The translations under genes were made by a program, and so were the position numbers. The notes below the pieces were generated by a model. The model made no database searches. It was not told where the DNA came from and saw only the letters and a program-made list of their open reading frames with translations. A stretch of DNA of 64,000 nucleotides from the NCBI RefSeq assembly GCF_988243305.1, contig NZ_OZ547136.1. One strand, 5' to 3'. Shown in pieces: positions 5,040 through 30,533 of this stretch. Numbering within the stretch: position 1 is the first letter of the stretch; each line of letters opens with the position of its first letter.

Positions 5040-5043
5040 ATTT

Positions 5044-8516: not shown

Positions 8517-8525
8517 AAGATGTCC

Positions 8526-9299: not shown

Positions 9300-9303
9300 T
9301 CAC

Positions 9304-10650
9304 TTATCCCCTTATCGCCCAGAGCTGAAGGTTCAGATCGGGGAAGGTGCCGGAGATATGCAGCGCCAGCGCGCCCGCTTTTATCACGTCCTGCCAGGCT
9401 GGGGTGCCTTTTTCCAGTTCGAAGTAAACATAACCTTCATGCCAGGGCAACTGACGCGGCGCAGCGGTAAGCGTGTGCAGCGGAATACCCGGCACCTGCA
9501 CGCTGACCACGCTGCGGATTTTGTCGGTAGCGGCCACTTTCGACTGCTGGATGAACTGGCGCTGCACCTGGTCGTAGGGCATCCTGGCGCGCACTGCCAG
9601 TACCAGCTTGCAGGACTGCAACAGTGTGGGATCGCTGATGGTGGCGATCCAGGTCCCCTCTGAAAAGAACAGCGGCAGATTCTGCGCACGCGGTACCAGC
9701 ACGGTATTGAGTGCGCGCCGCAGTTCCGGAATTACTGTTCTGGTGAAGGTCGCGGTAAGATCCCGGTGATTATACGGCTCCACGGTGCAGGGCAGGCGAT
9801 TACCTTCGGTGAAGGTCATCAGTTCTCCCAGCAGCCCCACCAGATCCCGGTAGAAGGCTTCCGGATGCAGCGTGTGCAGTTGGGAACGATGCGTGAACTG
9901 CATTTGATGGCGGTTAAGCATCTGCAACATCATAAATTCGGCCACATCGGCGATCCCGCTCTGTTCAGGCGAACCGATGCGCCCGGCCAGGTCGGCGGCG
10001 CGGGTGGCAAGTAGCCCCTGCACCTCGCCGGAGAATGCCCCGAGCAACCCGCTGACACGGACGGCCTGAATGGTGGGAATAAAGGTGTTGTCCAGCACCA
10101 GTGCGCCGGTAGCATTTTTATTGAGGATACGGCACAGGGGGAGGGTCACCATCGCGCTGAGATCATCTGCGCCGCTGACTATCCTGGGGATCAACTGCCC
10201 CAGACCGACCGGCTGTTCGTCGCCTTCGTCAGTGTGAAAATCACGGACGCGGGTATGGGTGAGGCGGTAACGTTCCGTGCCCTGACCGGCGCTGTGCAAC
10301 CCCTGGATTTCATTGATCACGTCGCTGATTACAGGCAGTGCCAGATAAATATTGTGGCTCTCTTTCGATGAAAGGGTTCCCGGCTGGAAAGGTTCCGGCA
10401 GCAGATCCTGGTCGGGAATGCTGAATACGGTGCCGTCAGGCATACAGCCCGCCGCACGGTCAATCATGATTTTGCCCTGGGCAAGCAGTTCGGTATTGAT
10501 GGAGAGTTCTGTAAAGCCCCAGAAAAAATCACCCTGAGCATCCAGACGACGGGTCAGCAGGTACTCGCAGTGACGCTGCTGTTGCTGAAAATGCTGCGGC
10601 AGGGCAAACAGCCCTTCCTGCCAGATCACCTTGTTTTTCATTGTTGCCAT
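9304..10650 (-). CDS. tssK: T6SS baseplate protein TssK
   Basis: 448 aa; N-terminus VIWQEGLFALPQHFQQQ typical of TssK; start could instead be the ATG 9 nt downstream (MKNKV...). Confidence 0.85.
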   Translation of the reverse strand: MATMKNKVIWQEGLFALPQHFQQQQRHCEYLLTRRLDAQGDFFWGFTELSINTELLAQGKIMIDRAAGCMPDGTVFSIPDQDLLPEPFQPGTLSSKESHNIYLALPVISDVINEIQGLHSAGQGTERYRLTHTRVRDFHTDEGDEQPVGLGQLIPRIVSGADDLSAMVTLPLCRILNKNATGALVLDNTFIPTIQAVRVSGLLGAFSGEVQGLLATRAADLAGRIGSPEQSGIADVAEFMMLQMLNRHQMQFTHRSQLHTLHPEAFYRDLVGLLGELMTFTEGNRLPCTVEPYNHRDLTATFTRTVIPELRRALNTVLVPRAQNLPLFFSEGTWIATISDPTLLQSCKLVLAVRARMPYDQVQRQFIQQSKVAATDKIRSVVSVQVPGIPLHTLTAAPRQLPWHEGYVYFELEKGTPAWQDVIKAGALALHISGTFPDLNLQLWAIRG

Positions 10651-10652
10651 CG

Positions 10653-11177
10653 TCAGTTTTCCTCTTTTTTCATCTCAATCGCACTGGCGCGGATATGCAC
10701 CAGCAGGCGATAGTGGTGGCCGATACTTTCTACCGGCTCAATTTGTTTCCATTCTGTGGCCTGATCGTCTGAAAAATAGGCAATGACACCGATATAACCG
10801 GTTTTCTCATCCAGCTTGATCGGCGGCAGTGTTTTTACGGTGTCCGGCAACAGGTTGAAGTCCTGGTGATCGATATAGTTCTTCCCCAGCACGTCGGGCA
10901 GCGCGGTGGTGGCAATCTGATCGTAATCGGCGGCCTGGAATTTGGAGTCGTCGCTCAGATACACCAACTGGACATCCACCGGCGCGGCTTCGCCGTCCGC
11001 CGTCAGGTTGCTGTCCGGCTCGGTCAGCAGCGTGACGGTCAGTTCGGTTGACTGCTCCATCAGCTTTCCGACCTGAATATCCGGATTGCGGATCACTTGG
11101 CTGATTTTTTTCGCTGTTTCACAGCCAGTTAACACAACGCTCATCAGAACGCAGGCCAGAAACGCTTTGCCGTTCAT
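10653..11177 (-). CDS. tssJ: T6SS outer-membrane lipoprotein TssJ
   Basis: 174 aa; signal peptide with lipobox LTGC. Confidence 0.85.
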   Translation of the reverse strand: MNGKAFLACVLMSVVLTGCETAKKISQVIRNPDIQVGKLMEQSTELTVTLLTEPDSNLTADGEAAPVDVQLVYLSDDSKFQAADYDQIATTALPDVLGKNYIDHQDFNLLPDTVKTLPPIKLDEKTGYIGVIAYFSDDQATEWKQIEPVESIGHHYRLLVHIRASAIEMKKEEN

Positions 11178-12466
11178 GCTTCCGGCTCCCGCTGTTTTTC
11201 GCGCAGCACTCGGTCATAGACCTGGGCATAAACTTCATTGAACAGCATTTCAAATCCCTGCTGTCGGCTGGAGGCCAGTTCATCGTAATAGTTGCTGTAC
11301 ATCTGCCATGCCCAGGCGTTGTCCATTTTCTGGCGCAGCTCATGGCTGCGGCGGTATTGCGCAAAGCGGCGCATCAGGTTGCCCGGCGAGAAGGCGTCCA
11401 GCATGACACGCAACGCTTCCACAATCGCCGCCCGGTTGGCCTCTTCATGATGCCGGATGTTGCGCAGGCTTTCGGCGATGGCCGCAGGTGCTGCGAGATG
11501 TACCGGGCTTTTACCCTCGGCGAACATGACGTTCAGCGCGGTGGCATAGTCCATATCAAGGCGCAACGGGTTGTCTTCCAGTGGACGCAGGTGTTTATCC
11601 GACAGGCTGTTCTGTTGTTGTTGCAGACTCAGCAATCCCTTAATGGCGGCCTGCAACGCCCGTCCGGCCTCTTCGAGAAACTCATCCGCATCCTGAGAAT
11701 TGTGCAGCGTCAGCGGACACTCCATACCGCGCAGCAGCGGGGTTACGGCCAGGTGGTACTGCGCCATGGCAGAAAATTCATCGCCGTCCTCATGACGGGC
11801 ATTGCCGGGTGGCAGATCCATAAACGGCGTGTTGATCCCGTTTGCACCTGTCAGATCGGAGGCGGTGGCAACGGGCCGGGAAACGCGTGGGGCGATCGGA
11901 TCATCTGCCACCATCAGGCTTTCCGTCTGGAGTGCCTGGAGCGGATCGCTGGAAAAACCGTGCGCCACCGTGGGGGCAAGCTGATGCTGGAACGGCATTC
12001 CCGGATACGCCGGTTGTCCCTCGGTGGTCAACAGGGTGTCCGCCAGACTGTCGCGGTTCATTACAATCGTTTCCGGGGTCGCCATCCGCTCGTCATAGGT
12101 AACAGCTGCACCGTCATGCAGAAACACTTTCAGCGCCAGTGCGCCGAGCTGGATCTCATCCCCCTGGCGCAGGCGGATGAGCGCATCGGAAGAGACCGGG
12201 GCCAGATTAATCATCAGTCCCGGCGTCAGGCACCGCAGGCAATAGGCTCCGTCGTGCCGGATAACGGTACAGGCACGCGCAGCAATGCTTCCCGCCCGGT
12301 CCTGTACCTGCCAGTGACATTCCGGCGTATGGCCAATATCACCGCCGTTTTCGCTGAACAGGCATTTTGCGGCGCGTCCGCTTTCCAGTTCGTTGCCATT
12401 CATCACCTGTAAAGTCAGTGAGGCCTGGCGGGATTGCTGTTTTTCCTCAGCCATAAGTGGTTCCAT
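11174..12466 (-). CDS. tagH: T6SS-associated FHA-domain protein TagH (Fha)
   Basis: N-terminal FHA-like domain (...IGHTPECHWQVQD...CTVIRHDGAYCLRCL...GDEIQLGALALKV); ORF track start 12616 is probably too far upstream; preferred ATG at 12466 (MEPLMAEEKQQ) lies 5 nt from the tssG stop. Confidence 0.8.
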   Translation of the reverse strand: MEPLMAEEKQQSRQASLTLQVMNGNELESGRAAKCLFSENGGDIGHTPECHWQVQDRAGSIAARACTVIRHDGAYCLRCLTPGLMINLAPVSSDALIRLRQGDEIQLGALALKVFLHDGAAVTYDERMATPETIVMNRDSLADTLLTTEGQPAYPGMPFQHQLAPTVAHGFSSDPLQALQTESLMVADDPIAPRVSRPVATASDLTGANGINTPFMDLPPGNARHEDGDEFSAMAQYHLAVTPLLRGMECPLTLHNSQDADEFLEEAGRALQAAIKGLLSLQQQQNSLSDKHLRPLEDNPLRLDMDYATALNVMFAEGKSPVHLAAPAAIAESLRNIRHHEEANRAAIVEALRVMLDAFSPGNLMRRFAQYRRSHELRQKMDNAWAWQMYSNYYDELASSRQQGFEMLFNEVYAQVYDRVLREKQREPEA

Positions 12467-15760: not shown

Positions 15761-17245
15761 TTATTCCTTATCCAGTCGTCCGACCAGGCTCAGGTCGAAA
15801 CTGGCACCCATGTATTTAAAATGCGGTCTGACAGAAATCGCGACCTGGTACCAGCCCGGCTCACCATCCACATCCAGTACCTCGATCTTAGCCTGACGCA
15901 AAGGCCGGTGGCTGCGGACTTCGGCAGGCGGATTTTCCTGGTCAGCAACATACTGGCGAATCCAGGTGTTCAGCTCACGCTCCAGGTCACTACGTTCTTT
16001 CCATGAGCCAAGCTGTTCGCGCTGAATTACCTTGATGTAATGCGCTAACCTGCTGATAACAAACAAGTATGGCAGCTGGGTGCCGAGTTTATAGTTGGTC
16101 TCCGCAGCCTTGCCTTCGGGGGTTTTGGGGAATGTTTTGGGTTTCTGCACCGAGTTGGCCGAGAAAAAGCACGCATTATCAGACCCTTTACGCATGGTCA
16201 GTGTGATAAAGCCCTCTTCCGCCAGCTCATACTCTCTCCGGTCAGTGATCAACACTTCAGTCGGAATTTTTGCCTGCATTTGCCCCATGGATTCATACAG
16301 ATGCACCGGGAGGTCTTTGACTGCGCCGCCGCTGGAAGGGCCAATAATATTTGGGCACCAGCGATACTTAGCAAAACTTTCCGCCAGGTTGGCGGCCAGT
16401 AAAAACGAGGTATTCCCCCACAGATAAGACTCATGACTCTGGCTGACATCTTCATGGTAACGGAAGGTTTTGACAGGGTTTTCATCCGGTGAGTAAGGGT
16501 GGCGCAGCAGGAACCGGGGGGCGGTCAGGCCCAGGTAACGGGAATCTTCCGATTCACGCAGGGCGCGCCAGCGGGAGTAGGCCGGGCCTTCAAAGATGGC
16601 ACCCGGTTCTTTGATCCCCGGTAACTCTGTCCATGAATCCAGACCGAAAAATTCGGATGATACTGACGACAGGAACGGGCTGTGCGCCATCGCGCTGACC
16701 TGGCTGATATATTTCAGCAACTTCATATCCGGCGTGGTGTTCTTAAAGGCAAAGTTGCCGATTACCGCCGCCACTGGCTCACCGCCAAATTGTCCGTAAC
16801 CGCTTGAATATACATGCTTGTAATACGCAGACTGCGTGATTTCAGGTGCAAATTCGAAATCATCCAGCAGTTCTTCCTGAGTGACATTCAGGAAATGGAC
16901 TTTGATGTTTTCCCGTGTATCCGCGCGTTCAACCAGCAGCTTCAGCGAGCGCAGCAGGGATTCCAGTTCCTGAAACTCCGGGGCATGAATAATGGCATCC
17001 ATCTGCCTGCTGGTTCGGGCATCAATATCAGCAATCATGGCGTCAACGGCCAGGATATTGATAGGTTCAGCGCTACTGTCGCCCTGTAACATGGCGGCAA
17101 TAAAGGCGCTCACGCCCTGGCGGGTGATATCGTAGCTTTCTGATTTAGGCTGGACGCGGGTTTGCGCCATGATTTCATCAAGCAGAGATGGGGGCGCGGC
17201 GGTTTGAGACGCGCTGACGGGAGCAATTTCTTCCTTTACTGACAT
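15761..17245 (-). CDS. tssC: T6SS contractile sheath large subunit TssC (VipB)
   Basis: 494 aa; size and sequence character of TssC; follows tssB. Confidence 0.9.
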   Translation of the reverse strand: MSVKEEIAPVSASQTAAPPSLLDEIMAQTRVQPKSESYDITRQGVSAFIAAMLQGDSSAEPINILAVDAMIADIDARTSRQMDAIIHAPEFQELESLLRSLKLLVERADTRENIKVHFLNVTQEELLDDFEFAPEITQSAYYKHVYSSGYGQFGGEPVAAVIGNFAFKNTTPDMKLLKYISQVSAMAHSPFLSSVSSEFFGLDSWTELPGIKEPGAIFEGPAYSRWRALRESEDSRYLGLTAPRFLLRHPYSPDENPVKTFRYHEDVSQSHESYLWGNTSFLLAANLAESFAKYRWCPNIIGPSSGGAVKDLPVHLYESMGQMQAKIPTEVLITDRREYELAEEGFITLTMRKGSDNACFFSANSVQKPKTFPKTPEGKAAETNYKLGTQLPYLFVISRLAHYIKVIQREQLGSWKERSDLERELNTWIRQYVADQENPPAEVRSHRPLRQAKIEVLDVDGEPGWYQVAISVRPHFKYMGASFDLSLVGRLDKE

Positions 17246-17267
17246 ACTGAAAATCCTTCTGTGAAAA

Positions 17268-17771
17268 TTATTTCTGAACGGCGATACCCAGTTCCTGGAT
17301 CAGCTGCTCGCGGCTGTCTTCGTTTTCCAGTAGCGCCTGAAGTTGTGCGCGGAAGGCCGGAATATTGCCTAGTGGAGACTTAAGTGCGACCAGTGCCTCA
17401 CGCAGCTCCAGCAGGCGCTTTATTTCCGGCACCTGACTGGCAATATGGTCAGGAGAAAGGTCATCCATAGATTTGACTTTCAGGTTGACGTACATTTGCT
17501 CATTGGGAGCGTCACTGAGTTCAGCCGGAACAACAAACTCCCGTTCAATGTCAGCTTCTGAAATGACTGCGTTGAGGTTATAGCGGTTGATAGCAATGGC
17601 AGTTCGCTCATCCAACGGCGTGTTATCTGGTTTCCCTTTCAGATTGCCGGTGATCAATAAATTCAGCGGCAATTCGATATCAGCAGCCACCCCATCAACT
17701 TTTGGTGTATACCGAACGCTGATTCTTTCTTTCGGCGCGACACTGCCGCCATTGTTGTTCATTTTGCTCAT
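17268..17771 (-). CDS. tssB: T6SS contractile sheath small subunit TssB (VipA)
   Basis: ORF track 17268..17822 starts at a TTG; preferred start is the ATG at 17771 (MSKMNNNGGSVAPKERISVRY...), giving about 167 aa; first gene of the operon. Confidence 0.85.
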   Translation of the reverse strand: MSKMNNNGGSVAPKERISVRYTPKVDGVAADIELPLNLLITGNLKGKPDNTPLDERTAIAINRYNLNAVISEADIEREFVVPAELSDAPNEQMYVNLKVKSMDDLSPDHIASQVPEIKRLLELREALVALKSPLGNIPAFRAQLQALLENEDSREQLIQELGIAVQK

Positions 17772-18474
17772 AAAAATGTTCCCGTTCAGGCCATGAGCAC
17801 AGCATTTTCGTACTGCATACAAATACCGACAATACCGTTTCAGTGGCAGTTAGATAATGTAACCTTCTTTCTGTTGTGATCGGTATTCTACTCATGAAAT
17901 AAAATATTAAAAGAACTATTTATATTTTTGAAAGAGATGTATCCTTCATTATTAATACATGATAGTGAAATCAATTTTGGTATTTATAGACTTGGTGAAT
18001 ATAATTTTACGGCCAATAAAGTGCAATAACACATTGATTTATATGTGTTTATTAAATTGATTAATAAGTTTTGTGTATGGTTTTATAAATTAGTTAATTG
18101 CTAGCAATACATCATAAGAAATTCCTTTAAGGAATATCTTAATTGCGTGCAGGAACGATGGTGAAGTAAGTGTTGTAATAATTTATTTTTGACGAAACTG
18201 TAGGTTTTTATGGGGATAAGGATACGTTATGGATAATTCTACTGTTGATGTTGATATATTTTTAGCTTATGTGACCGTGTTCTGAAATTGACTAAAAATA
18301 TATTTAAACACCATAAAAGAGTTTTTCGGTAGGTGCTAATTACGTGTGCCTGTAACTCGAATAAAGAAAAGGGTGTGGTTCCTGATGTGAGCCGCATCAC
18401 ACTCTAACCTGTCGGGGATTAACGACGGGTTGTTCGTAAAAACAGCAGTTGATAATTTCACAAGGAGTTCACAA
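17772..18474. promoter_or_regulatory. AT-rich divergent control region between tssB (minus) and hcp (plus)
   Basis: About 700 bp of non-coding, strongly AT-rich DNA between divergent operon starts; contains two short perfect or near-perfect palindromes at 18097-18108 and 18121-18135. Confidence 0.5.
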
Positions 18475-18993
18475 ATGCCAACCCCATGTTACATTTCTAT
18501 TACGGGCCAGACCCAGGGGAACATCACTGCCGGTGCTTTCACCGCGGATTCTGTCGGCAATATCTACGTGCAGGGGCACGAAGATGAAATGCTGGTGCAG
18601 GAGTTTTTGCACAACGTTACTGTTCCAACCGATCCGCAGTCTGGCCAGCCTTCCGGCCAGCGCGCGCACAAACCGTTCATTTTCACCGTGGCGCTGAACA
18701 AAGCCGTTCCGCTGCTGTACAACGCGCTGGCCTCCGGTGAAATGCTGCCGAAAGTGGAGCTGCACTGGTGGCGTACTTCAGTTGAAGGCAAGCAGGAGCA
18801 CTACTTCACCACACGTCTTACTGACGCGACGATTGTGGACATGAACCTGCACATGCCGCACTGCCAGGACCCTGCACAGCGTGAGTTTACGCAATTGCTC
18901 GCAGTATCACTGGCATACCGTAAGGTTGAGTGGGAGCACATCAAATCCGGTACTTCTGGTGCCGATGACTGGCGTGCACCGCTGGAAGCATAA
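18475..18993 (+). CDS. hcp: T6SS inner tube protein Hcp (TssD)
   Basis: ATG at 18475 (MPTPCYISITGQTQGNITAGAF...) preceded by AAGGAG 7 nt upstream; 172 aa; ORF track start 18430 is an upstream TTG. Confidence 0.9.
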   Translation: MPTPCYISITGQTQGNITAGAFTADSVGNIYVQGHEDEMLVQEFLHNVTVPTDPQSGQPSGQRAHKPFIFTVALNKAVPLLYNALASGEMLPKVELHWWRTSVEGKQEHYFTTRLTDATIVDMNLHMPHCQDPAQREFTQLLAVSLAYRKVEWEHIKSGTSGADDWRAPLEA

Positions 18994-19004
18994 ATCTGAG
19001 TCAA

Positions 19005-19038
19005 CAACATCCTGCCTTCGTGCAGGATGTTGTTTTTG
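19005..19038 (+). terminator. Rho-independent terminator/attenuator between hcp and vgrG
   Basis: 11-bp perfect stem (CAACATCCTGC / GCAGGATGTTG) with a 6-nt loop, followed by TTTTT, 12 nt after the hcp stop. Confidence 0.6.
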
Positions 19039-19213
19039 TACGTGTAAAAAATGAGTGTCAGTAAGGAGTTACGCTTTCATGAGGGAGATGGCGGATGCCG
19101 GAAACCCGGGCGGTAGCGTACCTGAAAATGTAAAGATGAGTGTAACGCTGCACTGGCACCCTTTGCTGCATGGTGAGAATCATTTGGTCCGTGAATAAAT
19201 CAGGGGGGTCATT

Positions 19214-21196
19214 ATGTCCTTAAAAGGTCTGCGCTTTACGCTGGAGGTTGACGGCCAGGAGCCGGACACCTTTGCAGTGGTGAATTTCAGGTTAATCCAG
19301 AACCAGTCATATCCGTTTGTGATGAGTGTGGATGTTGCCAGCGACTCTTTTATGCAGACGGCGGAGATGCTGCTGGAGAAGAAGGCGACACTGACCATCT
19401 GGCAGGGCGCAGTGGCGCAGCGTTATGTCACCGGCGTGGTGGCGGGTTTTGGCATGCAGGAGAATAACGGCTGGCAGATGCGTTATCACCTGCGTATTGA
19501 GCCGCCGTTATGGCGGTGCGGGCTGCGGCAGAACTTCCGTATCTTCCAGCAGCAGGATATCCGGACGATATCGGCCACGTTACTGAACGAGAACGGCGTC
19601 ACGGAGTGGACGCCGCTGTTTTATGAGGACCATCCGGCGCGGGAGTTCTGTGTCCAGTACGGGGAGTCGGACCTGGCGTTTCTGTCCCGGCTGTGGGCGG
19701 AGGAGGGAATTTTCTTCTTTGAGCGGTTTGCGGCGGACAGTCCGGAGCAGAAGCTGACGCTGTGCGACGATGTGGCGGGGCTGTCACAGGCGGGAGAGCT
19801 TCCGTTTAACCCGGACACATCGACAGGAGCGGAGACGGAGTGTGTCAGTATGTTCCGTTATGAGGCGCATGTCCGCCCGTCGTCGGTGCAGAGCCAGGAT
19901 TACACGTTTAAGGTGCCGGACTGGCCGGGGATGTATGAGCAGCAGGGTGAGAACCTGAACGGACAGCTGGCGCAGTATGAGATATTTGATTATCCGGGAA
20001 GGTTCAAGGACGAGCAGCACGGCAAGGATTTCACGCTGTACCAGATGGGCAGCCTGCGCAGTGATGCGGAAAAGGCCACAGGGCAGAGTAATTCACCGAA
20101 GCTGTGGCCGGGAACGCAGTTTACGCTGACGGGGCATCCGCAGAAGATGCTGAACCGTGAATGGCAGGTGGTACAGAGCATACTGTCAGGAAGCCAGCCG
20201 CAGGCGCTGCACGGCAGCCAGGGGAGAGGAACCACGCTGGGAAATCAGTTAGAGGTGATACCGGCAGACCGGACGTGGCGTCCACGGCTGCAAAGCAAAC
20301 CGAAGGTGGACGGGCCACAGAGCGCCATTGTCACCGGGCCTGCGGGAGAGGAAATCTTCTGCGACGAACATGGCCGGGTACGGGTGAAGTTCCACTGGGA
20401 CCGTTATCACGGGATGACGGAGGCGAGTTCATGCTGGGTGCGGGTATCGCAGGCGTGGGCGGGGCCGGGTTTCGGCAATCTGGCGATACCGCGGGTGGGT
20501 CAGGAGGTGATTGTTGATTTCCTGAACGGCGACCCGGACCAGCCGATAATCATGGGACGGACATACCATGAGGACAACCGTTCGCCGGGGAGTCTGCCGG
20601 GGACGAAGACGCAGATGACGATACGGTCGAAGACCTATAAAGGAAGCGGATTTAACGAACTGCGCTTTGAGGACGCCACAGATAAGGAACAGGTCTATAT
20701 TCACGCGCAGAAGAACATGGATACGGAAGTGCTGAATGACCGGACGACGGACGTGAAGCATGACCACACGGAAACCATTGGTAACGACCAGAAGATAACG
20801 GTGGGGTTGGGCCAGACGGTGAATGTGGGGAGCAAAAAGGAAGGTGGTCATGACCAGAAAGTGACGGTAGCGAACGATCAGCATCTCACGATAAAAAATG
20901 ACCGGCACAAGGTTGTAAATAACAACCAGACAAGCAAGGTGACGGGAACTGATACCGAAGAAGTCGTCAAAAAACAGAGTATTAAAATAGGTGATAATTA
21001 CGAACTGAAAGTTGAGCATGGTACAAAAATCATATCTGGGGACAGTATTGAGCTAATTTGTGGGCAGGGAGAGAGCGGGACTTGTTCCATAAAACTGGAG
21101 AAAACAGGAAAGATAATAATACGGGGGACGGAGTTTCTATTTGAGGCTACCGGTCCTGTAGATATTAAAGGAAAAGATATTCATCTGAACGGATAG
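19214..21196 (+). CDS. vgrG: T6SS spike protein VgrG (TssI), no C-terminal effector extension
   Basis: 660 aa; gp27/gp5-like organisation ending in beta-helix repeats; GGGGGG-type ribosome-binding site upstream. Confidence 0.9.
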   Translation: MSLKGLRFTLEVDGQEPDTFAVVNFRLIQNQSYPFVMSVDVASDSFMQTAEMLLEKKATLTIWQGAVAQRYVTGVVAGFGMQENNGWQMRYHLRIEPPLWRCGLRQNFRIFQQQDIRTISATLLNENGVTEWTPLFYEDHPAREFCVQYGESDLAFLSRLWAEEGIFFFERFAADSPEQKLTLCDDVAGLSQAGELPFNPDTSTGAETECVSMFRYEAHVRPSSVQSQDYTFKVPDWPGMYEQQGENLNGQLAQYEIFDYPGRFKDEQHGKDFTLYQMGSLRSDAEKATGQSNSPKLWPGTQFTLTGHPQKMLNREWQVVQSILSGSQPQALHGSQGRGTTLGNQLEVIPADRTWRPRLQSKPKVDGPQSAIVTGPAGEEIFCDEHGRVRVKFHWDRYHGMTEASSCWVRVSQAWAGPGFGNLAIPRVGQEVIVDFLNGDPDQPIIMGRTYHEDNRSPGSLPGTKTQMTIRSKTYKGSGFNELRFEDATDKEQVYIHAQKNMDTEVLNDRTTDVKHDHTETIGNDQKITVGLGQTVNVGSKKEGGHDQKVTVANDQHLTIKNDRHKVVNNNQTSKVTGTDTEEVVKKQSIKIGDNYELKVEHGTKIISGDSIELICGQGESGTCSIKLEKTGKIIIRGTEFLFEATGPVDIKGKDIHLNG

Positions 21197-21302
21197 TGCA
21201 GGATATAAAACATGGTGATTGTATTTGCTTTATACGCCTGTGAATCACCATTTGTGATTGTTTAAATTAATCATAGCATGACTTATTCAGGAATCAATAA
21301 GC

Positions 21303-22349
21303 ATGATAGAAATGAAAAATAACACACCATTTCCTTTGTTGTCATTTGAAAAATATGGTCGTTATGGTCTTTTGTTTGATGTTATTGCTATTAAAATGTC
21401 ATTGCGAATTAAAAATGGATTTTATGCTGATCTTGCTGAGTTTCAAAAAGAATTGTCCATGTCTGATGAATACTATGGGGAGTCTGAAACAAGTAGTCTA
21501 AAATCTGAAACAGACTTAGTTCTTTGTAAAAGAAATACAGATATTCACGTGACAGGTAGTGCTCATGCCCCTCCAGGGGATAAGTCTAAGTGGAAGGCTT
21601 GTGTGAGGGTTAATAGTTTTTCTAAAGAACTGAGTTTATCTGGTGTCCGCTACTTACAATATGAGCGAAATCGTTGGCAGATGAGCTTACCAGATAAAAT
21701 TATTAATGTTCCTCTACGCTATGAGCTTGCTTACGGTGGTATTTGGCAACCAGATGGTATGGAGAAATTGGTTTTTTCAGCAAACCCTGTAGGTTGTGGA
21801 TATTATCCTGATATTTCTCAACTTAATACAAGTTGTCAATATAAACTCCCACAAATAACCAGCTCTGCTTTGTCAGAAAACGCTACCATTTTTAATGGGG
21901 AATCTGACTTTTTTCAAGGTGTTGGCCCTGTATCTCGATGGTGGAAAAGTCGCCTCCAGTATGCAGGAACCTACAATGAAGTATGGCGTGAAAAGCGCTA
22001 TCCCTATTTGCCGGATGATTTTGATGAGCGGTTCTACAATAGTGCTCATCCGGATATGATATACACGGGGTTTCTCTCTGGCGATGAAAACATCTCTCTT
22101 GAAGGTTTTTTTAAATTTGAACAGGTTGTTAAGACAAAATTGCCAGGTATACGACCTGTACTTATATTAAAAACCAAGCATAATACATCACATATGTTCT
22201 TACCTGTTGCGGATACAATGGTTATCGATTTAAGTCGACAGGAAATATACCTTACCTGGAGATTAACAATACCTGATTTTTTTGGAATGAAAGAAGGAGT
22301 GCTGAGTTGTATTATTCCTGAATGTATAGGGAAAAAATATTATGGGTAA
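21303..22349 (+). CDS. T6SS adaptor-like protein (DUF2169-type suspected from context and size)
   Basis: 348-aa AT-rich ORF immediately downstream of vgrG; 8-nt overlap with the following PAAR-like gene; the family call rests on genomic context, not on a motif I can verify. Confidence 0.45.
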   Translation: MIEMKNNTPFPLLSFEKYGRYGLLFDVIAIKMSLRIKNGFYADLAEFQKELSMSDEYYGESETSSLKSETDLVLCKRNTDIHVTGSAHAPPGDKSKWKACVRVNSFSKELSLSGVRYLQYERNRWQMSLPDKIINVPLRYELAYGGIWQPDGMEKLVFSANPVGCGYYPDISQLNTSCQYKLPQITSSALSENATIFNGESDFFQGVGPVSRWWKSRLQYAGTYNEVWREKRYPYLPDDFDERFYNSAHPDMIYTGFLSGDENISLEGFFKFEQVVKTKLPGIRPVLILKTKHNTSHMFLPVADTMVIDLSRQEIYLTWRLTIPDFFGMKEGVLSCIIPECIGKKYYG

Positions 22350-23382
22350 CTATCATATCGGGGATGGTGAATGTAGATTTAGAGTCGTGTGTTCTTCACC
22401 AGATGTATGTGAAGTAGGAGGTTACAAGGTTCCTTTTGACAGTTACCAGACTTTAGATAGTGAAAGACAGTACAGTTCAACGGTATGGGCGCGTGGATGC
22501 AGAGCTTTAAATGTTGGTTCAGTGATTGCTGGAACTCAAAGTAATGCCGGTAAAGGTGTCATATCCGGTACATCTCAAGGAACGGGTGACTGTGTTATTT
22601 TAACGGGAAGTCCGACTGTAACAATAGAAGGGAAACCTGTTGCTTATCATGGTTCAGTTGTTGGGATTAATAACCATAACTGCCTTGGTAAATTGTATAC
22701 CAAAATAAAATCACCAATGATTTCTGTCATTGATAAAACTTTTAGTTATGAAAGGACTGCTGAAGTAATACACGATTTACTGCTTCTGAAGGATCTCCTT
22801 TCTGTTGGGAATATTTTGGGCGGAGATATTTCACCTGAGGTTAAAAATGATTTATTTCAAATAAAAGATCCTGACCAATCATGGGGGGAGTTTTTTTCAA
22901 TAAAGAATATCAGAGAATCTCTCAGGAATGGTATTGAAGGAGATAAATCTCAGATCAGAGAATGGTTTGGAGAGAACACACTTACTCAAATGGGCAATGG
23001 AGCAATCACCACTTTACATGGTGTGGCGGATTTAGCCTTAGTTACATTCGATGCTCTGTTAGATACGGCAACGGCAACGGTTGCTTGCCCGATAGGCGAA
23101 GATGGGTTATGTGAACAGGCAAATATAAATTTAAATGAAAAAGAACAGGCTTTATTTAATATTAGTAATTCATTGATAAATGGGCAAGCATGGGATGCAC
23201 TTAAAAAAATGATAATGGATACAAATAATGGTGATCAGATTGCTCTGGAGCATTTTGCCAGCTTTTTATGGGGCTTTATGATACCCGCAAAAATACCAGA
23301 AGAAAATATCTCTGGGAAAGTATTTGTAGAGCCAGTAGTTTTAGAAGGTGGTGCTGGTGGCAATTGGACAGTATTTGATTAG
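22342..23382 (+). CDS. PAAR-like (DUF4150-type) T6SS spike-tip protein with C-terminal extension
   Basis: N-terminus CRFRVVCSSPDVCEVGGYKVPFDSY...GDCVILTGSPTVTIEGKPVAYHGSVV resembles PAAR-like DUF4150 domains; 346 aa; ends at a TAG that is in frame with the next ORF. Confidence 0.65.
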   Translation: MGNYHIGDGECRFRVVCSSPDVCEVGGYKVPFDSYQTLDSERQYSSTVWARGCRALNVGSVIAGTQSNAGKGVISGTSQGTGDCVILTGSPTVTIEGKPVAYHGSVVGINNHNCLGKLYTKIKSPMISVIDKTFSYERTAEVIHDLLLLKDLLSVGNILGGDISPEVKNDLFQIKDPDQSWGEFFSIKNIRESLRNGIEGDKSQIREWFGENTLTQMGNGAITTLHGVADLALVTFDALLDTATATVACPIGEDGLCEQANINLNEKEQALFNISNSLINGQAWDALKKMIMDTNNGDQIALEHFASFLWGFMIPAKIPEENISGKVFVEPVVLEGGAGGNWTVFD

Positions 23383-23409
23383 GTTTTAGATTCAAATGTA
23401 ATAAAGCAA

Positions 23410-23781
23410 TTGACTTTAACAGGCTGTGGAGCGGCCTGTGGGGAAATGTTGCTTAGGGATAGGTATATTTTTGTCACGCAAAATGTAATTGGAACAGAAT
23501 TAACATCTATGACGTCGCTGGCAAACAAGCTTAATAAATTTGATGTCGGCTGGGAAGGGAATGAAGTGAGCGAATCTAGTTTATATGCCCTCAGTAATAC
23601 TGGTTCATGGGGAGCAATGATGTGGGATTCTGGAAGTAAAGTAGGGCATTGGGTACTTGTTAAGGGTGTTGATGATGCTGGGAATGTGATAATATATGAT
23701 CCATATCAAGGGAGTCGATATCTGATGACTGAACAGGAATTTAAGGAGGTATGGAATGGGCATAGTGTTTACAAACCATAA
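23410..23781 (+). CDS. Papain-fold (C39-like) cysteine peptidase domain, candidate toxin domain; possibly the 3' part of a disrupted PAAR-toxin fusion
   Basis: Candidate catalytic motifs CGAACGEM (Cys), GHWVLVKG (His), IIYDPYQG (Asp); same reading frame as 22342..23382 with only one TAG between them; ORF-track start is a TTG. Confidence 0.5.
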   Translation: MTLTGCGAACGEMLLRDRYIFVTQNVIGTELTSMTSLANKLNKFDVGWEGNEVSESSLYALSNTGSWGAMMWDSGSKVGHWVLVKGVDDAGNVIIYDPYQGSRYLMTEQEFKEVWNGHSVYKP

Positions 23782-24046
23782 TATTGATTTGTTATCGGTT
23801 GAATTTGATGAGATTACAAAAAATTGTAATTACACTTTTAGTGTAGATGGAGAGACGGCTATCTTTACTGCTAGAATATCAATAATAAGAAATATAAAGG
23901 GAATTAAATATAGCGAAGAACTTGATAAATTTATAATGTCAATAATGCCATTGCAGCCTAAAGTATCAAAAATTTTGGGAGGTGTTACTTGGGATTGTAT
24001 TTGTGGTAAGGAAGTTGGATTTCCTGTGAGATTAATTGGTAAGTGA
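23756..24046 (+). CDS. Small protein, candidate cognate immunity protein
   Basis: 96-aa ORF whose ATG overlaps the last 26 nt of the peptidase-domain ORF; no signal peptide; AT-rich. Confidence 0.35.
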   Translation: MGIVFTNHNIDLLSVEFDEITKNCNYTFSVDGETAIFTARISIIRNIKGIKYSEELDKFIMSIMPLQPKVSKILGGVTWDCICGKEVGFPVRLIGK

Positions 24047-24303
24047 AGGGTGGTGAGGTATTTCTATATTTTTTTTCGTGAAAGTCTTTAAAACTAAAAT
24101 TATCTTGTTGGGAGCCCAAGGTGAGATCATAAAACGTATTATTTTATAAATATTGTTATGCAGGGAAAGGTCAAGTAATGCTGCTTTTTTGTACTAAATA
24201 ATTCGCATTTTATGTTCAATAATTGAGGTGTTCCTTATTACCTAAAGCTGTTTTTCATTGCTTATACATGATCAAATACTCATTGCATAATTAAGGGGGC
24301 AAA

Positions 24304-25250
24304 ATGGAACTTAAAAAATTGATGGAACATATTTCTGTTATCCCCGATTACAGGCAAGCCTGGAAAGTGGAACATAAATTGCCAGATATTCTATCTGTTA
24401 ACTATTTGCGCCGTTATTTCTGGTGCATAAGGCTGGGAAGATATAGAGGATTTGGGGAAACACATCTCGATTTTTTGAAGTGATATGGTGATTTTGAAAA
24501 TGGTATTCCTGTTCACGATATCATTGCCAGAGTTGTATCCTGTATCAGTCCTGCAAAATTTTACGAGTGCTTTATTAACTGGATGCGTGACTGTCATTCT
24601 TCAGATGATAAAGACATCATCGCAATTGATGGAAAAACGCTCCGGCACTCTTATGATAAAAGTCGTCAAAAGGGAGCAATTTATGTCATTAAAATCCGTC
24701 TTCATATTGTTTGCATGTCTCTGATGAATTTATTGATTTTACGTTTGAATGGAAAGGGCTGAAGAAATTATGCATGGCAGTCTCATTTCGCTCAATAATA
24801 GCAGAACAAAAGAAAAATCCCGAAATGACGGTCAGATATTATAGCATTTCTGCTGATTTAACCGCAGAGAAGTTCGCCACAGCGAACCGAAATCACTGGC
24901 AAGTGGAGAATAAATTGCACTGGCATCTGGACGTGGTAATGAATAAAGACGACTTCAAAATAAGAAGAGGAAATGCAGCAGAATTATTTTCAGGGATACG
25001 GAAGATCGCTATTAATATTTTAACGAAAGATAAGATAATCAAGGCAGGGGCAAGATGTAAGATGTGAAAAGCAGCTGCGGACAGAGACTACCTCGCGTCA
25101 GTCCTTGCGGGGGCGGGCTTTCGTAATCTTGTTCTGCAAGGGATGATAAAAAGTGCAACTTTATTCCACGCAGCTATTTAGACAGCGTACAGTAAACAAA
25201 CGAAAGTTGTTATTTCAATGGTCAGGGCAAGAGCATGAAGTGTTTACTAC
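24304..25250 (+). mobile_element. Degenerate ISAs1-family (H-repeat) element with disrupted transposase
   Basis: N-terminus [26 protein letters not shown]... and C-terminal fragment ...[27 protein letters not shown]...[17 protein letters not shown]... match the ISAs1/H-repeat transposase from memory; frameshifts and an internal deletion are evident; right boundary approximate. Confidence 0.7.
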
Positions 25251-25295
25251 ACACTATGCTCTTGTCCTGGAGTCAGGTCTTGTCTGGAGGGATAA

Positions 25296-25799
25296 ATGGT
25301 AGATATTGTCGAGGCCGATAAAACGGATATTTATTTCATTCAGGAGAGTGTTTATGGCAAAATCGGGTTGCCAGCTTTGGGTAATACAATAGGACCATCC
25401 GCACAGCAAGTTGTTAAAAAGGTATTCGCTGTCGTTAAAGAACGAGATAAGACACATGCAAAACAGAGATTATTGTTGGAATATAATGGTAACAAACTCT
25501 GGATGAATGCTATTGATGGCAGTGAAGCTATCCTACCAACAGAATTTTCTAAGCGGTACGAACTTTCATTATTCAATACTACTAATTTTGGAGAAGATCC
25601 TTTTCCTGATGTTAATTTATATAATAATATGAAATCAAGTTTTTTTGTAAGGTTTGGTGGAACATCCCATCCCGAGGCTTGGGCTATTTATAATGCAAGT
25701 ACGAAAGAGGTTAAATATATAGAAACTGCAAGAGAAATTGATAAAATATTCAGTGATTTTAACTTGAGTGGTACATTGCCAATTCACATTGGTCAATGA
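25296..25799 (+). CDS. Hypothetical protein (cassette gene 1, unknown function)
   Basis: 167-aa ORF with GGAGGG ribosome-binding site 5-6 nt upstream of the ATG; no signal peptide; AT-rich; flanked by ISAs1 remnants. Confidence 0.4.
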   Translation: MVDIVEADKTDIYFIQESVYGKIGLPALGNTIGPSAQQVVKKVFAVVKERDKTHAKQRLLLEYNGNKLWMNAIDGSEAILPTEFSKRYELSLFNTTNFGEDPFPDVNLYNNMKSSFFVRFGGTSHPEAWAIYNASTKEVKYIETAREIDKIFSDFNLSGTLPIHIGQ

Positions 25800-25864
25800 T
25801 TTTTAAATTGTGTGATTAAATAATTGAACATTAATGATGATTTATAGCATCATTATTCTATAAC

Positions 25865-26377
25865 ATGAATAAACGGATTGAATGTGTTATGTTAAAAATG
25901 AGTTTATACGTAATAATATTGTTATTTTCCTTTCAGATTAGTGCAGCCATTACTAGCAAGGAAAGTGAGGTTGTTTCACCATTATTAATGGATGTTAATT
26001 CTTCACTAACAATGGAAAATATATCTGAATTATCCACATCATCGGAACCATCGCAACAGGGGGTATTTCCTGTAATATGTACTCGACTTCATCCTGGCTC
26101 CGTAATGAAACGCCAGTTATTAACCGGCTGGGGGCCTGTTTTTATAATTGGTGATGATCCTTTTTCTCTGCGCTGGATGAGTGAACATCTGGAGATCCTT
26201 AAATCGCTAAATGCCCTTGGTTTGGTTGTTAATGTTGAATCAGTAGAACGAATGGAGGTATTACAGCAGCGGGCTGATGGGTTATTGTTATTGCCAGTTA
26301 TCTGCGATAATTTCGTGCAAACTCTGCAATTAAATGCTTATCCGGTATTAATCACAGAGATGGAAATATCACAATGA
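25865..26377 (+). CDS. Hypothetical exported protein (cassette gene 2, unknown function)
   Basis: 170-aa ORF; signal-peptide-like segment MSLYVIILLFSFQISAAI; true start may be an internal ATG at 25889 or 25898. Confidence 0.4.
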   Translation: MNKRIECVMLKMSLYVIILLFSFQISAAITSKESEVVSPLLMDVNSSLTMENISELSTSSEPSQQGVFPVICTRLHPGSVMKRQLLTGWGPVFIIGDDPFSLRWMSEHLEILKSLNALGLVVNVESVERMEVLQQRADGLLLLPVICDNFVQTLQLNAYPVLITEMEISQ

Positions 26378-26409
26378 TTAATAACATAATTACTGCAAAT
26401 AATATCGTA

Positions 26410-26612
26410 ATTTTGAAAATGGTAATCCTGTTCACGACACCATAATTAGAGTTATGTCTTGTATCCGTTCAGTATAATTTCACGAATGCTTTATTAACTG
26501 GATGCGAGATTGCCATTCATCAAATGATAAAGACGTCATCGCAATTGATGGAAAAGCGCTTCCACACTCCTATGATAAAAGTGGTCGCAGGAGAGCGGGC
26601 TTTCGTAGTCAT
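26410..26612 (+). mobile_element. Second, shorter ISAs1 (H-repeat) transposase remnant
   Basis: About 180 bp at roughly 85% identity to 24491-24672 (encodes ...FENGNPVHDT...[29 protein letters not shown]...), joined directly to H-repeat 3'-end-like sequence (GGGCTTTCGTA). Confidence 0.6.
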
Positions 26613-26648
26613 ACCCCGACTCTCCCCAGCCCTAAACACAACCCCCAC

Positions 26649-27419
26649 TCACCACAACCTAAACTCATCCGCATCCCGCCATGCCGGAAACTTTTCTCTA
26701 TACTCCCGCAACGCCATCATCGACAGCTCCGCATCAATGCGCGTTGCCTGATGCGCGTCGGCAGTAGCGATAATCTCGCCTTGCGGATTAATCACCCGGC
26801 TGTCACCACGATAATGGCAGCCGTTGCCATCGCTGCCGACGCGATTGCATCCCGCCACATACGCCTGATTCTCAATCGCGCGGGCTGTCAGCAATGCCTG
26901 CCAGTGCAGAGAGCGCGGAGCAGGCCAGTTGGCGACGTACAGGGCGAGGTCATAATCGTTGAGATTGCGCGACCACACCGGAAAACGTAAGTCGTAGCAC
27001 ACCAGCGGCAAAATACGCCAGCCGCGCCATTCCACAATCACTCGCGCATTGCCCGCTTTATAATGTAGATGCTCATCTGCCATGCGGAACAGATGACGCT
27101 TATCATAAAAATGTACCGTGCCGCCCGGCTCAACCAGCAAAAAGCGGTTAACCGAACCAGACTCCGTTTGTAATGCAACACTGCCTGCAATCAGCGCATT
27201 GCACTGCTGCGCTTTGGCTGTCATCCAGTTCACTACGTCATCTTGTGCTAGCGACGAAGCTGCCGCTTCCATGGCAAAGCCGCTGGTAAACATCTCCGGT
27301 AGAACGATCACATCGCGTCCGGTAATACCTTCCAGTTGACGATCAAAATGACGCAGGTTGGCAGGACCATCCATCCACACCAGTGGTTGCTGCAAAAGCG
27401 TAATCTTCAAACCAGGCAC
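26649..27419 (-). CDS. yafV: Omega-amidase (nitrilase-family C-N hydrolase) YafV
   Basis: Protein matches E. coli YafV as recalled; ORF track start 27428; probable start 9 nt downstream. Confidence 0.85.
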
Positions 27420-27572
27420 GGTGTACAACTCCTTTATGCGAAGGGTTTTATAACTTTAACACCTTATCAGGCAGTTGCCTTAGCGCAGAATAAATTGATA
27501 ACAAATGCTGATATTGGAAATATCTGATTTGCAAATTATCGTGTTATCGCCAGGCTTTAGGAGGTTAATAAC

Positions 27573-28046
27573 ATGGGCAGGATAAGCTCGGGAGGAATGA
27601 TGTTTAAGGCAATAACGACAGTCGCCGCTCTGGTCATCGCCACCAGTGCAATGGCGCAGGATGATTTAACCATTAGCAGCCTTGCAAAGGGCGAAACCAC
27701 CAAAGCTGCGTTTAATCAGATGGTGCAAGGGCATAAGCTACCTGCATGGGTGATGAAAGGCGGTACTTATACTCCCGCACAAACCGTAACGTTGGGAGAT
27801 GAGACGTATCAGGTGATGAGCGCGTGCAAACCGCATGACTGTGGCTCGCAACGTATCGCTGTGATGTGGTCCGAGAAATCTAATCAGATGACGGGGCTGT
27901 TCTCGACTATTGATGAGAAAACGTCGCAAGAGAAACTCACCTGGTTGAATGTGAACGATGCGCTTTCGATTGATGGTAAAACGGTGCTGTTCGCGGCGTT
28001 GACCGGCAGCCTGGAAAACCATCCGGATGGCTTTAATTTTAAATAA
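27573..28046 (+). CDS. ivy: Inhibitor of vertebrate lysozyme Ivy
   Basis: 157 aa with signal peptide; matches Ivy (YkfE) as recalled. Confidence 0.85.
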   Translation: MGRISSGGMMFKAITTVAALVIATSAMAQDDLTISSLAKGETTKAAFNQMVQGHKLPAWVMKGGTYTPAQTVTLGDETYQVMSACKPHDCGSQRIAVMWSEKSNQMTGLFSTIDEKTSQEKLTWLNVNDALSIDGKTVLFAALTGSLENHPDGFNFK

Positions 28047-28060
28047 TTAGCGGATAAAGA

Positions 28061-28082
28061 AACGGAGCCTTTCGGCTCCGTT
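28061..28082. terminator. Bidirectional hairpin terminator between convergent ivy and fadE
   Basis: 9-bp perfect stem AACGGAGCC / GGCTCCGTT with TTTC loop between the two stop codons. Confidence 0.55.
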
Positions 28083-28088
28083 ATTCAA

Positions 28089-30533
28089 TTACGCGGCTTC
28101 AACTTTCCGCACTTTCTCCGGCAACTTTACCGGCTTCGTCGCCAGCTCTTCCGGATCAAAGTCATCAACGTTAATACTGCGCAGACGGCTTTCTTCAGCT
28201 TTCACCAGAATAGCGGCTTCATCTTTATCAATCAGCCCCTTCGCCAGCGCGTTATGCGCCAGTTCATCCAGACGGGTAAACGGCAGGTTTTTACCCAGCT
28301 CTTTACAGATCCGCTGATGAATTGGGTCGGCGGCAATCACATCCACCAGCGCCTCTTCCAGTAAGCCAACCGGGTTATGCTCGCTCGGCGTCAGGTACTG
28401 ACCGCGACCAATACGTGAACGGGTGGCGTTCGGCACTTGTAAAATCTTCGCCACCTTATGATCCAGCTTGTCAGAAGGTGCCAGATAATGACGTCCGGTC
28501 GGGAAGATCACCACATTCAGCAGCCCGGCAACCACGCGGTTCGGGAAGTTTTGCAGTAAATCATCCATCGCCTGTTCAGCCTGATACAGCGCATCCTGTA
28601 CGCCCCAGTGCACCAGCGGCAGGTCGGCTTCATTACGGCCTTCGTCGTCATAACGCTTCAGAACGGCAGAGGCGAGGTAAAGCTGGCTTAAAATATCCCC
28701 CAGACGTGCCGAGATACGCTCACGACGTTTCAGGCTGCCGCCCAGCACAGCCATCGAGACATCAGAAAGCAGGGCGAGGTTGGCGCTCAGGCGGTTCAGG
28801 TGCTGATAGTAGCGTTTAGTGGCATCGCCGGTTGGCGTGCTGCTGGTTAAACCGCGCGTCAGGCCCAGCCAGAAGCTGCGAACTTTGTTGCTACCGACGT
28901 GACCGATATGTTTAAACAGGAGTTTATCGAACGCGTTGACGTCATTGTTCTTCGCCGCTTCCATCTCTTCCAGCACGTACGGATGGCAACGAATCGCTCC
29001 TTGTCCGAAGATCATCATGCTGCGGGTCAGAATGTTAGCCCCTTCAACGGTGATGGCAATCGGCGCGCCCTGGTAAGCACGCGCCAGGAAGTTGCTCTGC
29101 CCGAGCATAATGCCTTTGCCACCAGTGATATCCATCGCATCAATAATCGACTGCTGCCCGCGGTGGGTACAGTGATACTTAACGATAGCCGACAGCACGG
29201 CAGGTTTTTCACCGAGCATAATGCCGTAGGTAATCAGCGATGCCGCAGCATCCATTACATAAGCGTTTCCGGCAATACGCGCCAGCGGCTCTTCAATCCC
29301 TTCCATCTTACCAATAGAGATTTTGAACTGACGGCGGATGTGCGCATACGCACCCGTTGCCAGCGCTACCGATTTCACGCCGCCGGTTGAGTTGGAAGGC
29401 AGGGTGATACCGCGGCCTACCGAGAGGCACTCCACCAGCATCCGCCAGCCTTGCCCGGCCATTTTTGGTCCGCCGATAATGTAATCGATCGGTACGAAGA
29501 CATCTTTACCGCGCGTCGGTCCGTTCTGGAACGGCACGTTCAGCGGGAAGTGGCGACGACCAATTTCCACGCCCGGCGTGGTAGTCGGGATCAGCGCACA
29601 GGTAATACCTAAATCTTCTGCACCGCCGAGTAATTTCTCCGGGTCGGAGAGTTTAAACGCCAGCCCAAGCACGGTCGCAATCGGTGCGAGCGTAATGTAA
29701 CGTTTGTTCCAGGTCAGACGCATCCCCAGCACCTGCTGGCCCTGCCATTCCCCCATGCAGACAATCCCGGTGTCCGGAATCGCGCCCGCATCGGAACCCG
29801 CTTCCGGGCTGGTCAGTGCAAAGCAAGGGATTTCCTGACCACGCGCCAGACGCGGCAGATAGTGATCTTTCTGCTCGTCAGTGCCGTAATGTTGCAGTAG
29901 CTCACCCGGGCCTAATGAGTTTGGCACGCCGACGGTAATCGCCAGGATCCCGCTCACGCCGGAGAGTTTTTGCAGCACGCGAGACTGGGCATAAGCCGAG
30001 AACTCCAGCCCGCCGTACTCTTTTTTGATGATCATCGCGAAGAAACGATGCTCTTTAAGGTACGCCCACAACTCCGGCGGCAAATCAGCCAGCTCATGAG
30101 TAATCTGGAAATCATTCGCCATCCGGCAGGCTTCTTCTACCGGGCCGTCGAGAAACGCTTGCTCTTCTGCGGTCAGGCGCGGCTGCGGATAGTTATGCAG
30201 CTTTTTCCAGTCCGGCTTGCCCTGGAACAAGTCGCCCTCCCACCATGTGGTGCCTGCGTCGATCGCTTCTTTCTCAGTGCGCGACATCGGCGGCATCACC
30301 TTACGGAAGCCGCGAAATACCGGCGCGGAAATCATCGACTTACGCATAGGCGCAAAGTTAAATGGCACGAGGATAATGGCCAGAGGCACCAGTACCCACG
30401 CCGACCACAGACCAGCAACGCCGAGGGCGGCTGTCCAGGCGAGCAAAATCAGACTGCTGATAAATAAGCTCACGCGGTGATAGAACAACGCGCCGAGCAG
30501 GACAACCGTAGCGAGAATACTCAAAATCATCAT
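28089..30533 (-). CDS. fadE: Acyl-CoA dehydrogenase FadE
   Basis: ORF track 28089..30611 (840 aa); start at internal ATG 30533 ([11 protein letters not shown]...) gives the 814 aa expected for FadE. Confidence 0.9.

Follow-up and report, generated by a model that had tools for sequence, protein, structure and literature searches.

The AT-rich segment between vgrG and yafV in Escherichia coli as a probable cargo region of a type VI secretion island with an interrupted cpe1 gene

What is the strongly AT-rich segment that lies between vgrG, a gene of a type VI secretion system (T6SS), and the backbone gene yafV in Escherichia coli contig NZ_OZ547136.1 (assembly GCF_988243305.1)? The segment occupies approximately positions 21200–26640 of the 64,000-nucleotide (nt) stretch of DNA analyzed here, which is called the window. 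In a first-pass annotation it was described as containing only unassigned genes and insertion sequence (IS) debris. The segment is very probably the cargo end of the aspV-linked E. coli T6SS island, and consists of an exchanged cassette with a DUF2169 gene, cpe1 and cpi1, in which the effector is disarmed, together with a remnant bracketed by ISAs1 sequences. The IS debris is found as described and consists of two ISAs1 remnants. The genes of the left 3.3 kb, however, are not unassigned, as Pfam, PDB and RefSeq matches show these to be a published DUF2169/Cpe1/Cpi1 module (PMC12136450, PMC10434152, PMC11883445). The analysis covers base composition, gene identities, the interrupting stop codon, breakpoints and distribution in the population, and the open reading frames (ORFs) of the window were read against annotated near-identical loci of relatives. 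All features described are on the + strand except yafV.

Base composition and edges of the segment

The GC content of 21200–26640 is 0.370 compared with 0.533 elsewhere in the window. The flanks have a GC of 0.553 in the T6SS core (1–21199) and 0.522 in the downstream backbone. Per kb, GC is 0.36–0.38 over 21–26 kb, 0.51–0.61 in the T6SS core and approximately 0.47–0.58 downstream. The lowest value among 955 segments of the same size elsewhere is 0.483 (z = −4.9 for the AT-rich segment), and GC in 500-bp bins differs between the segment and the remainder with a Mann-Whitney p = 4e-7. In symmetrised dinucleotide composition the segment is at a distance of 118 from the remainder, and other segments are at 39.6 ± 10.2 (maximum 63.4). 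The CpG relative abundance is 0.69 versus 1.10 in the comparison. GC at third codon positions (GC3) is 0.23–0.32 in the genes of the segment, 0.73 in the 5′ part of vgrG and 0.59–0.64 in yafV and fadE. Thus both the GC and the dinucleotide profiles bear out, with strong significance, the first-pass description of a stretch more AT-rich than both flanks.

The limits given to this stretch stand only in part. A maximum-likelihood two-change-point fit places the right edge at 26581 (2-lnL interval 26526–26595), in agreement with the right limit, but places the left edge at 20891 (20830–20969) and not at the vgrG stop. The left compositional edge is therefore approximately 300 bp inside vgrG, upstream of its stop at 21196. 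The vgrG ORF (19214–21196, 660 amino acids (aa), annotated as TssI/VgrG in the closest genomes) shows a GC of 0.581 in its 5′ core (19214–20877, the first 1664 bp) and 0.404 in its last 319 bp. The 5′ core is also found in strains with other cargo, and the 3′ tip (20878–21196) is part of the cassette.

A scan for promoter and terminator consensus sequences gives 30 promoter-like sites compared with 21.6 ± 4.8 in shuffled sequences, which is uninformative in AT-rich DNA. No RNA families are found in an Rfam scan of 17000–28500 (E ≤ 0.1), and four proteins of the segment show no match to PADLOC models of defence systems. Outside of the segment, the divergent tssB–hcp intergenic region (17800–18430) displays a GC of 0.316 with a minimum of 0.205 in a 200-bp window, lower than the segment itself. 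It probably serves as a divergent promoter for the T6SS and as the site of its silencing.

The module is one already described, and its AT-rich composition is typical of T6SS cargo. Alternative cargo and immunity genes are also AT-rich to a varying degree (GC 0.33–0.48), and the AT-richness may be a general trait of such cargo rather than the signature of a low-GC donor. Such a donor, one sense of the horizontal acquisition put forward in the first-pass annotation, is only a possibility. In the Cpe1 study a Δhns donor was needed to obtain T6SS activity (PMC12136450), a requirement that would fit silencing of AT-rich DNA by H-NS.

The DUF2169, cpe1 and cpi1 genes

The cassette (20878–24185, 3.3 kb, GC 0.373) contains the vgrG tip, the DUF2169 gene, cpe1, cpi1 and a spacer. 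Its proteins would form a matched delivery set, consisting of the VgrG C-terminal tip, the DUF2169 chaperone, Cpe1 and Cpi1. The DUF2169 T6SS accessory protein gene (21303–22349, 348 aa) is intact, matches Pfam PF09937 over its full length (E = 2.7e-71) and differs from that of strain S88 by two amino acids. The cpe1 gene as a whole (22342–23781) is split by a premature TAG. Its 5′ part (22342–23382, 346 codons) encodes a PAAR-like (DUF4150/PIPY) domain and a middle region, and its 3′ part (23383–23781) encodes the toxin domain, a papain-like cysteine protease at residues 348–479. The immunity gene cpi1 (23756–24046, 96 aa) is intact and situated directly downstream of the toxin. There is an 8-nt overlap between the end of the DUF2169 gene and the start of cpe1 (22342–22349), and one of 26 nt between the end of cpe1 and the start of cpi1 (23756–23781); the three genes read as a single tight operon.

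Identification of these genes needed Pfam and PDB searches, since NCBIfam gives no match for DUF2169, either piece of cpe1, or cpi1. The intact cpe1 orthologue of S88 displays a Tox-PAAR-like (DUF4150) domain, PF13665, at residues 15–115 (E = 1.4e-11) and a Peptidase_C39 domain at 352–474 (E = 1.2e-5). RefSeq annotates the S88 locus as cpe1/cpi1, with the carrier-toxin fusion intact. The toxin domain of the window is identical to PDB 9L5U chain A at 131 of 132 positions (E = 9e-88), and the Cys-His-Asp catalytic triad is kept (Cys362; His436 and Asp453 by position). Cpi1 is identical to PDB 9L5U chain C at all 96 of 96 positions. In addition, the Tsap peptide WDALKKMIMDT of strain RS218 is found in the window ORF.

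What is said here on the activity of the toxin, on how immunity works and on the chaperone comes from published work. Cpe1 of ATCC 11775 is a T6SS-delivered papain-like cysteine protease that cleaves GyrB and ParE in their ATPase domains (Song et al., PLoS Biol 2025, PMC12136450). Cpi1 neutralises it by binding a hydrophobic exosite; the cleavage of GyrB and ParE and the toxicity have been shown for the ATCC 11775 protein only (PMC12136450). Cpe1 is the protein earlier named Tsap in the extraintestinal pathogenic E. coli strain RS218, in which the C39 part was located at nt 1041–1437 (PMC10434152). DUF2169 proteins are chaperones required for the formation of VgrG-PIPY (DUF4150) spike complexes (Sachar et al., JBC 2025, PMC11883445); for the E. 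coli protein of the window this role is predicted from that study. In the layout thus suggested, the N-terminal PAAR-like/PIPY domain of Cpe1 would cap VgrG and be followed by a linker, and the C-terminal protease would cleave GyrB and ParE in the attacked cell.

A three-way DNA alignment shows that codon 347 of cpe1 (23380–23382) is TAG in the window and GAG (Glu) in S88. The two differ by one G>T substitution, and the stop is in the reading frame of the toxin domain. As a result, the PAAR-like/PIPY carrier and the toxin are not fused in one ORF. The TAG is situated exactly at the carrier/toxin junction, as the crystallised toxin construct starts at residue 348. Translation would end at this junction and delivery of the toxin would be lost, leaving the effector disarmed. 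In an exact 69-mer search the TAG allele is present in two of the 332 complete genomes with the cpe1 stretch. In one of these, NY1601, vgrG is also split, by ISEc31 (extracted locus 5608–8851), which represents further decay of the module.

The detached toxin domain carries a second difference, A408E (codon 408, window 23563–23565). A408 belongs to a set of six non-polar residues through which the exosite binds Cpi1 and substrate, and the exosite is needed for toxicity as judged by mutation of L387, M426 and W428, A408 itself not having been mutated (PMC12136450). An AAGGAGG sequence precedes the cpi1 ATG and may allow cpi1 to be translated in spite of the nonsense codon in cpe1. From the sequence, the lineage would make at most a toxin-less 346-aa PIPY cap and keep its immunity. 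Since cpi1 is intact, the predicted state of the strain is immunity to Cpe1 without the means to attack with it.

Cassette boundaries, locus variation and the ISAs1-bracketed segment

Collinearity of the NGF1 genome with the window stops at 20877 and resumes at 24186, and between these identical flanks NGF1 carries a DUF4123/DUF3304/Tle1 cassette. On the right, homology to the ISAs1 copies of other strains begins at 24160–24192; thus the right boundary of the cassette is the left end of ISAs1. Identity to S88 is 95.3% in hcp and the 5′ part of vgrG and 99.5% in the cassette (Fisher p = 2e-27). Rightward it is 96.0% in the first ISAs1 copy, 98.7% in the two-gene insert, 90.5% in the second ISAs1 copy and 98.5% in the backbone. 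Past position 20773, mismatches to S88 drop from 7–21 to 0–2 per 250 bp. The loss of NGF1 homology, the jump in identity to S88 and the GC change point are three independent signals, and these converge at approximately 20.78–20.89 kb.

This pattern suggests that strains would swap the cassette by homologous recombination, with the vgrG 5′ core as one anchor and the left end of ISAs1 (H-repeat) as the other. Such an exchange would explain both the mosaic identity and the alternative cargo found at the site, which is Tle1, Rhs or a double module. The genome with the tandem module and the window look like two sides of a vgrG–vgrG recombination event.

In the closest genome the whole T6SS island sits between tRNA-Asp (aspV) and yafV. 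The window begins inside tssM, and the tRNA end of the island is outside of it. The site is empty in sequence type 131 (ST131), where tRNA-Asp is directly beside yafV, and K-12 retains a remnant consisting of a lipoprotein gene, ykfM, a partial gene and an ISAs1 fragment. The T6SS with DUF2169-cpe1-cpi1 is found in B2 strains and in the window, and NGF1 has a T6SS with DUF4123, three copies of DUF3304 and a Tle1-like phospholipase. STN0717-20 carries a diverged T6SS (71–79% identity) with Rhs and immunity genes; WS1933D has the same diverged type, with near-identical core proteins and a degraded Rhs. The island thus has a tRNA-Asp neighbor and presence/absence polymorphism, as is characteristic of tRNA-linked genomic islands. 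The K-12 remnant, the empty ST131 site and the coinciding breakpoints at approximately 20780–20890 agree with the first-pass proposal of a variable, recombination-prone region attached to a conserved secretion apparatus. The cpe1 stretch is present in 332 genomes, and 298 carry at least 80% of the island. The right-hand two-gene segment is present in 758 genomes, and 541 of these carry 80% or more of its length.

A second locus, between yncG and pptA in O145 RM9872 (NZ_CP028379.1, extracted locus 7158–12031), contains PAAR, a truncated vgrG, an identical cpi1, small ORFs and an ISAs1 relic. The truncated vgrG is fused by a deletion to the last ~500 bp of cpe1. This locus is an orphan toxin-tip/immunity array.

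The part of the segment to the right of the cassette (24160–26610) would be an ISAs1-bracketed remnant with two small conserved genes. Copy 1 (24160–25130) is a pseudogene of an ISAs1-family (H-repeat) transposase, of which a C-terminal piece matches NCBIfam NF033564 (E = 9e-28) at profile positions 220–314 only. The copy shows frameshifts, stops and an internal deletion of ~312 bp at 24691/24692 relative to the 1137-bp copy of STN0717-20, and the NCBI Prokaryotic Genome Annotation Pipeline (PGAP) calls it a pseudogene in relatives. Copy 2 (26402–26610, 0.2 kb), identified by repeats D1 and D4 and by blastn comparison with K-12 and STN0717-20, consists of an internal portion of the IS fused to its right end. 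Direct repeat D1 of copy 2 shares 82% identity with 24478–24677, and the right-end repeat D4, GCGGGCTTTCGTA, is found at 25113 and 26595. Neither copy contains an intact DDE transposase ORF with terminal repeats. Copy 2 abuts yafV and corresponds to the K-12 fragment; a single ISAs1 remnant abuts yafV in both STN0717-20 and K-12. The yafV gene (26649–27428, − strand, GC 0.547), which encodes 2-oxoglutaramate amidase, is the first backbone gene and the right boundary, and is followed by ivy and fadE.

The two ISAs1 copies are in direct orientation and flank a 1.27-kb segment with two genes, a 167-aa ORF (25296–25799) and a gene for a DUF2859/PFL_4695-family protein (25865–26377; PGAP start 25889). 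The latter matches TIGR03765 with 120.6 bits (cut-off 59.75) and Pfam PF11072 (E = 2.4e-28), and its product displays one hydrophobic, signal-like N-terminal segment at residues 4–22. Another E. coli lineage, GCA_910664955.1, has a diverged pair at this position, consisting of a 165-aa ORF and a DUF2859 gene. Amino acid identity to this pair is 68.5% for the 167-aa ORF and 76.4% for DUF2859, and the ratios of nonsynonymous to synonymous substitution rates (dN/dS) are 0.28 and 0.32, respectively. Both right-hand ORFs are thus real genes under purifying selection. Ahead of the pair in GCA_910664955.1 (extracted locus 4931–9031) are three genes, of 327, 411 and 137 aa; the second has a sub-threshold match to TIGR02270 and the third is thioredoxin-like. 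The pair is followed by an intact ISAs1, and there are no T6SS genes in the 8 kb upstream.

The 167-aa protein has no family match in Pfam or NCBIfam and no PDB sequence match, nor is its model similar to any solved fold. When 1.84 billion representatives are scanned in full with HMMER, 31 relatives are obtained, mostly of ~190 aa. Those that are named are all annotated as hypothetical and are from Serratia, Morganella and Pantoea; the ~190-aa relatives as a whole occur in Serratia, Morganella, Pantoea, Yersinia and Burkholderia. The E. coli form is approximately 30 residues shorter and has a different partner, the DUF2859 protein. Linkage of the family to the T6SS is drawn from 12 genomic contexts. 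In these, one relative is directly after an orphan hcp, one follows tssB-tssC in a T6SS core cluster, where it is surrounded by small genes of effector/immunity-like character, and one is 3.6 kb from a Tlde1-immunity-hcp module. The remaining contexts are stand-alone operons with a second gene of 135–179 aa and often a DUF805-type small membrane protein as the third. In nearly all of the contexts the gene that comes after the relative encodes 135–155 aa. All six partner proteins that were checked have at least two predicted hydrophobic/membrane segments, and five of the six have four.

The 167-aa ORF is tentatively regarded as a possible member of an unrecognised family of small T6SS cargo effectors. 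The four-segment partners of its relatives are suggestive of a membrane immunity protein, and in E. coli the secreted DUF2859 protein might act as the immunity protein of the 167-aa form. The metagenome contig JGI 3300078837 (extracted locus 7001–12062) displays, between tssC and tssE, a relative of the 167-aa ORF, its partner with four transmembrane segments and approximately eight small ORFs, several of which have signal peptides. This looks like an effector/immunity array.

Alternative explanations and related loci

The low GC could also arise in place, if a dead region drifted towards AT by mutational bias under relaxed selection. There are signs of decay in the nonsense codon and A408E of cpe1, in the two ISAs1 pseudogenes and in the IS of the NY1601 vgrG. 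However, GC is just as low (GC3 0.23–0.29) in ATCC 11775 and S88, whose alleles are intact, experimentally active and 98–99.5% identical. Furthermore, DUF2169 and cpi1 are intact, the dN/dS values of the two right-hand ORFs point to selection, and the GC step is abrupt and coincides with the recombination breakpoint. In-place decay is thus very improbable as the origin of the composition and is rejected, since intact active alleles share it. The split cpe1 might, on the other hand, still be a working weapon, either by read-through or suppression of the amber codon or by separate expression of the toxin domain and its non-covalent loading. The position of the stop precisely at the domain junction, where the crystallised construct begins, and the retention of Cys362 in a nearly unchanged domain are in keeping with this. 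A TTG at 23410 is in frame and could in principle restart translation upstream of Cys362, but no Shine-Dalgarno-like sequence precedes it on reading of the sequence, and the PGAP ORF begins at Met369, without Cys362. In addition, A408E alters the hydrophobic exosite, a surface needed for toxicity according to the neighboring mutations, and the allele is rare, with one of its two carriers, NY1601, decayed further. A functional split effector therefore appears highly improbable.

An integrative and conjugative element (ICE) fragment or an ISAs1 composite transposon beside yafV, unrelated to the T6SS, is an unlikely source of the island, or at least of its right half, though less so than the two explanations above. 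TIGR03765/DUF2859 is an "ICE" family, and the match exceeds the cut-off. The two direct ISAs1 copies bracket the two genes, and the bracketed segment is also found next to other left-hand cargo and is carried by more genomes than cpe1 (758 versus 332). Against this, no target-site duplication is seen, although no search aimed at one was made, no other ICE genes are nearby, and neither the window ORF list nor the annotated neighborhoods of five strains contain integrase, type IV secretion system or relaxase genes near the DUF2859 gene. Relatives of the 167-aa protein are found beside hcp or inside a T6SS cluster, and the diverged pair at the same place in another lineage argues for long residence rather than recent transposition. 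An ICE origin of the whole island was considered as well and is rejected for the left 3.3 kb.

The reading of the segment as the cargo end of the T6SS island, with an exchanged and disarmed cassette and an ISAs1-bracketed remnant, has points that weigh against it. It leaves the right-hand 2.4 kb without a functional account. The putative recombination anchors are drawn from a handful of genomes out of 5,426, and the Δhns donor is the sole support for silencing by H-NS. It is also possible that the toxin-less cap is unstable or is not produced at all, and the TTG codon noted above bears on the disarming of the effector.

The main value of this reading is a correction, as an anonymous-looking AT-rich island is a published weapon-and-antidote module. 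What is new is minor and consists of the nonsense allele, which is rare, the pair of recombination anchors as resolved here and the 167-aa ORF as an effector candidate. The nonsense allele would be a natural "immune but unarmed" form with the stop exactly at the carrier/toxin junction, and the pair of anchors would explain the swapping of T6SS cargo among E. coli at this site.

Among the closest known systems is Cpe1-Cpi1 of ATCC 11775, which has the same locus and gene order and 98.3% DNA identity across the whole island. The window allele differs from it by E347* and A408E and is thus a pseudogene or split allele. The window also shares the adjacent order of vgrG, a single-domain DUF2169 gene and a DUF4150-toxin gene with "synteny type B" of the DUF2169-VgrG-PIPY systems (PMC11883445). 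At the site of the P(I/V)P(Y/F) motif as defined in that study, the window has G-Y-K-V-P-F, in which VPF is kept and Lys replaces the first Pro. The aspV-linked pathogenicity island PAI I of LF82, UTI89, S88, 536 and APEC O1 (PMC2941450) is the same tRNA-Asp–yafV island. The window starts inside tssM and so does not include the tRNA end of this island.

In the Rhs and vgrG cargo islands of E. coli that carry H-repeat (ISAs1) elements, the 5′ part is GC-rich and conserved, the 3′ tip with its immunity gene is AT-rich and varies, and an ISAs1/H-repeat is at the distal edge. The window shares with these the GC-rich core, the AT-rich tip and immunity gene, and the distal ISAs1. The Rhs version at the same locus in STN0717-20 shows GC values of 0.613 for the core, 0.442 for the tip and 0.326 for the immunity gene. 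In the window, however, the carrier is VgrG together with a PIPY-toxin protein and not an Rhs cage.

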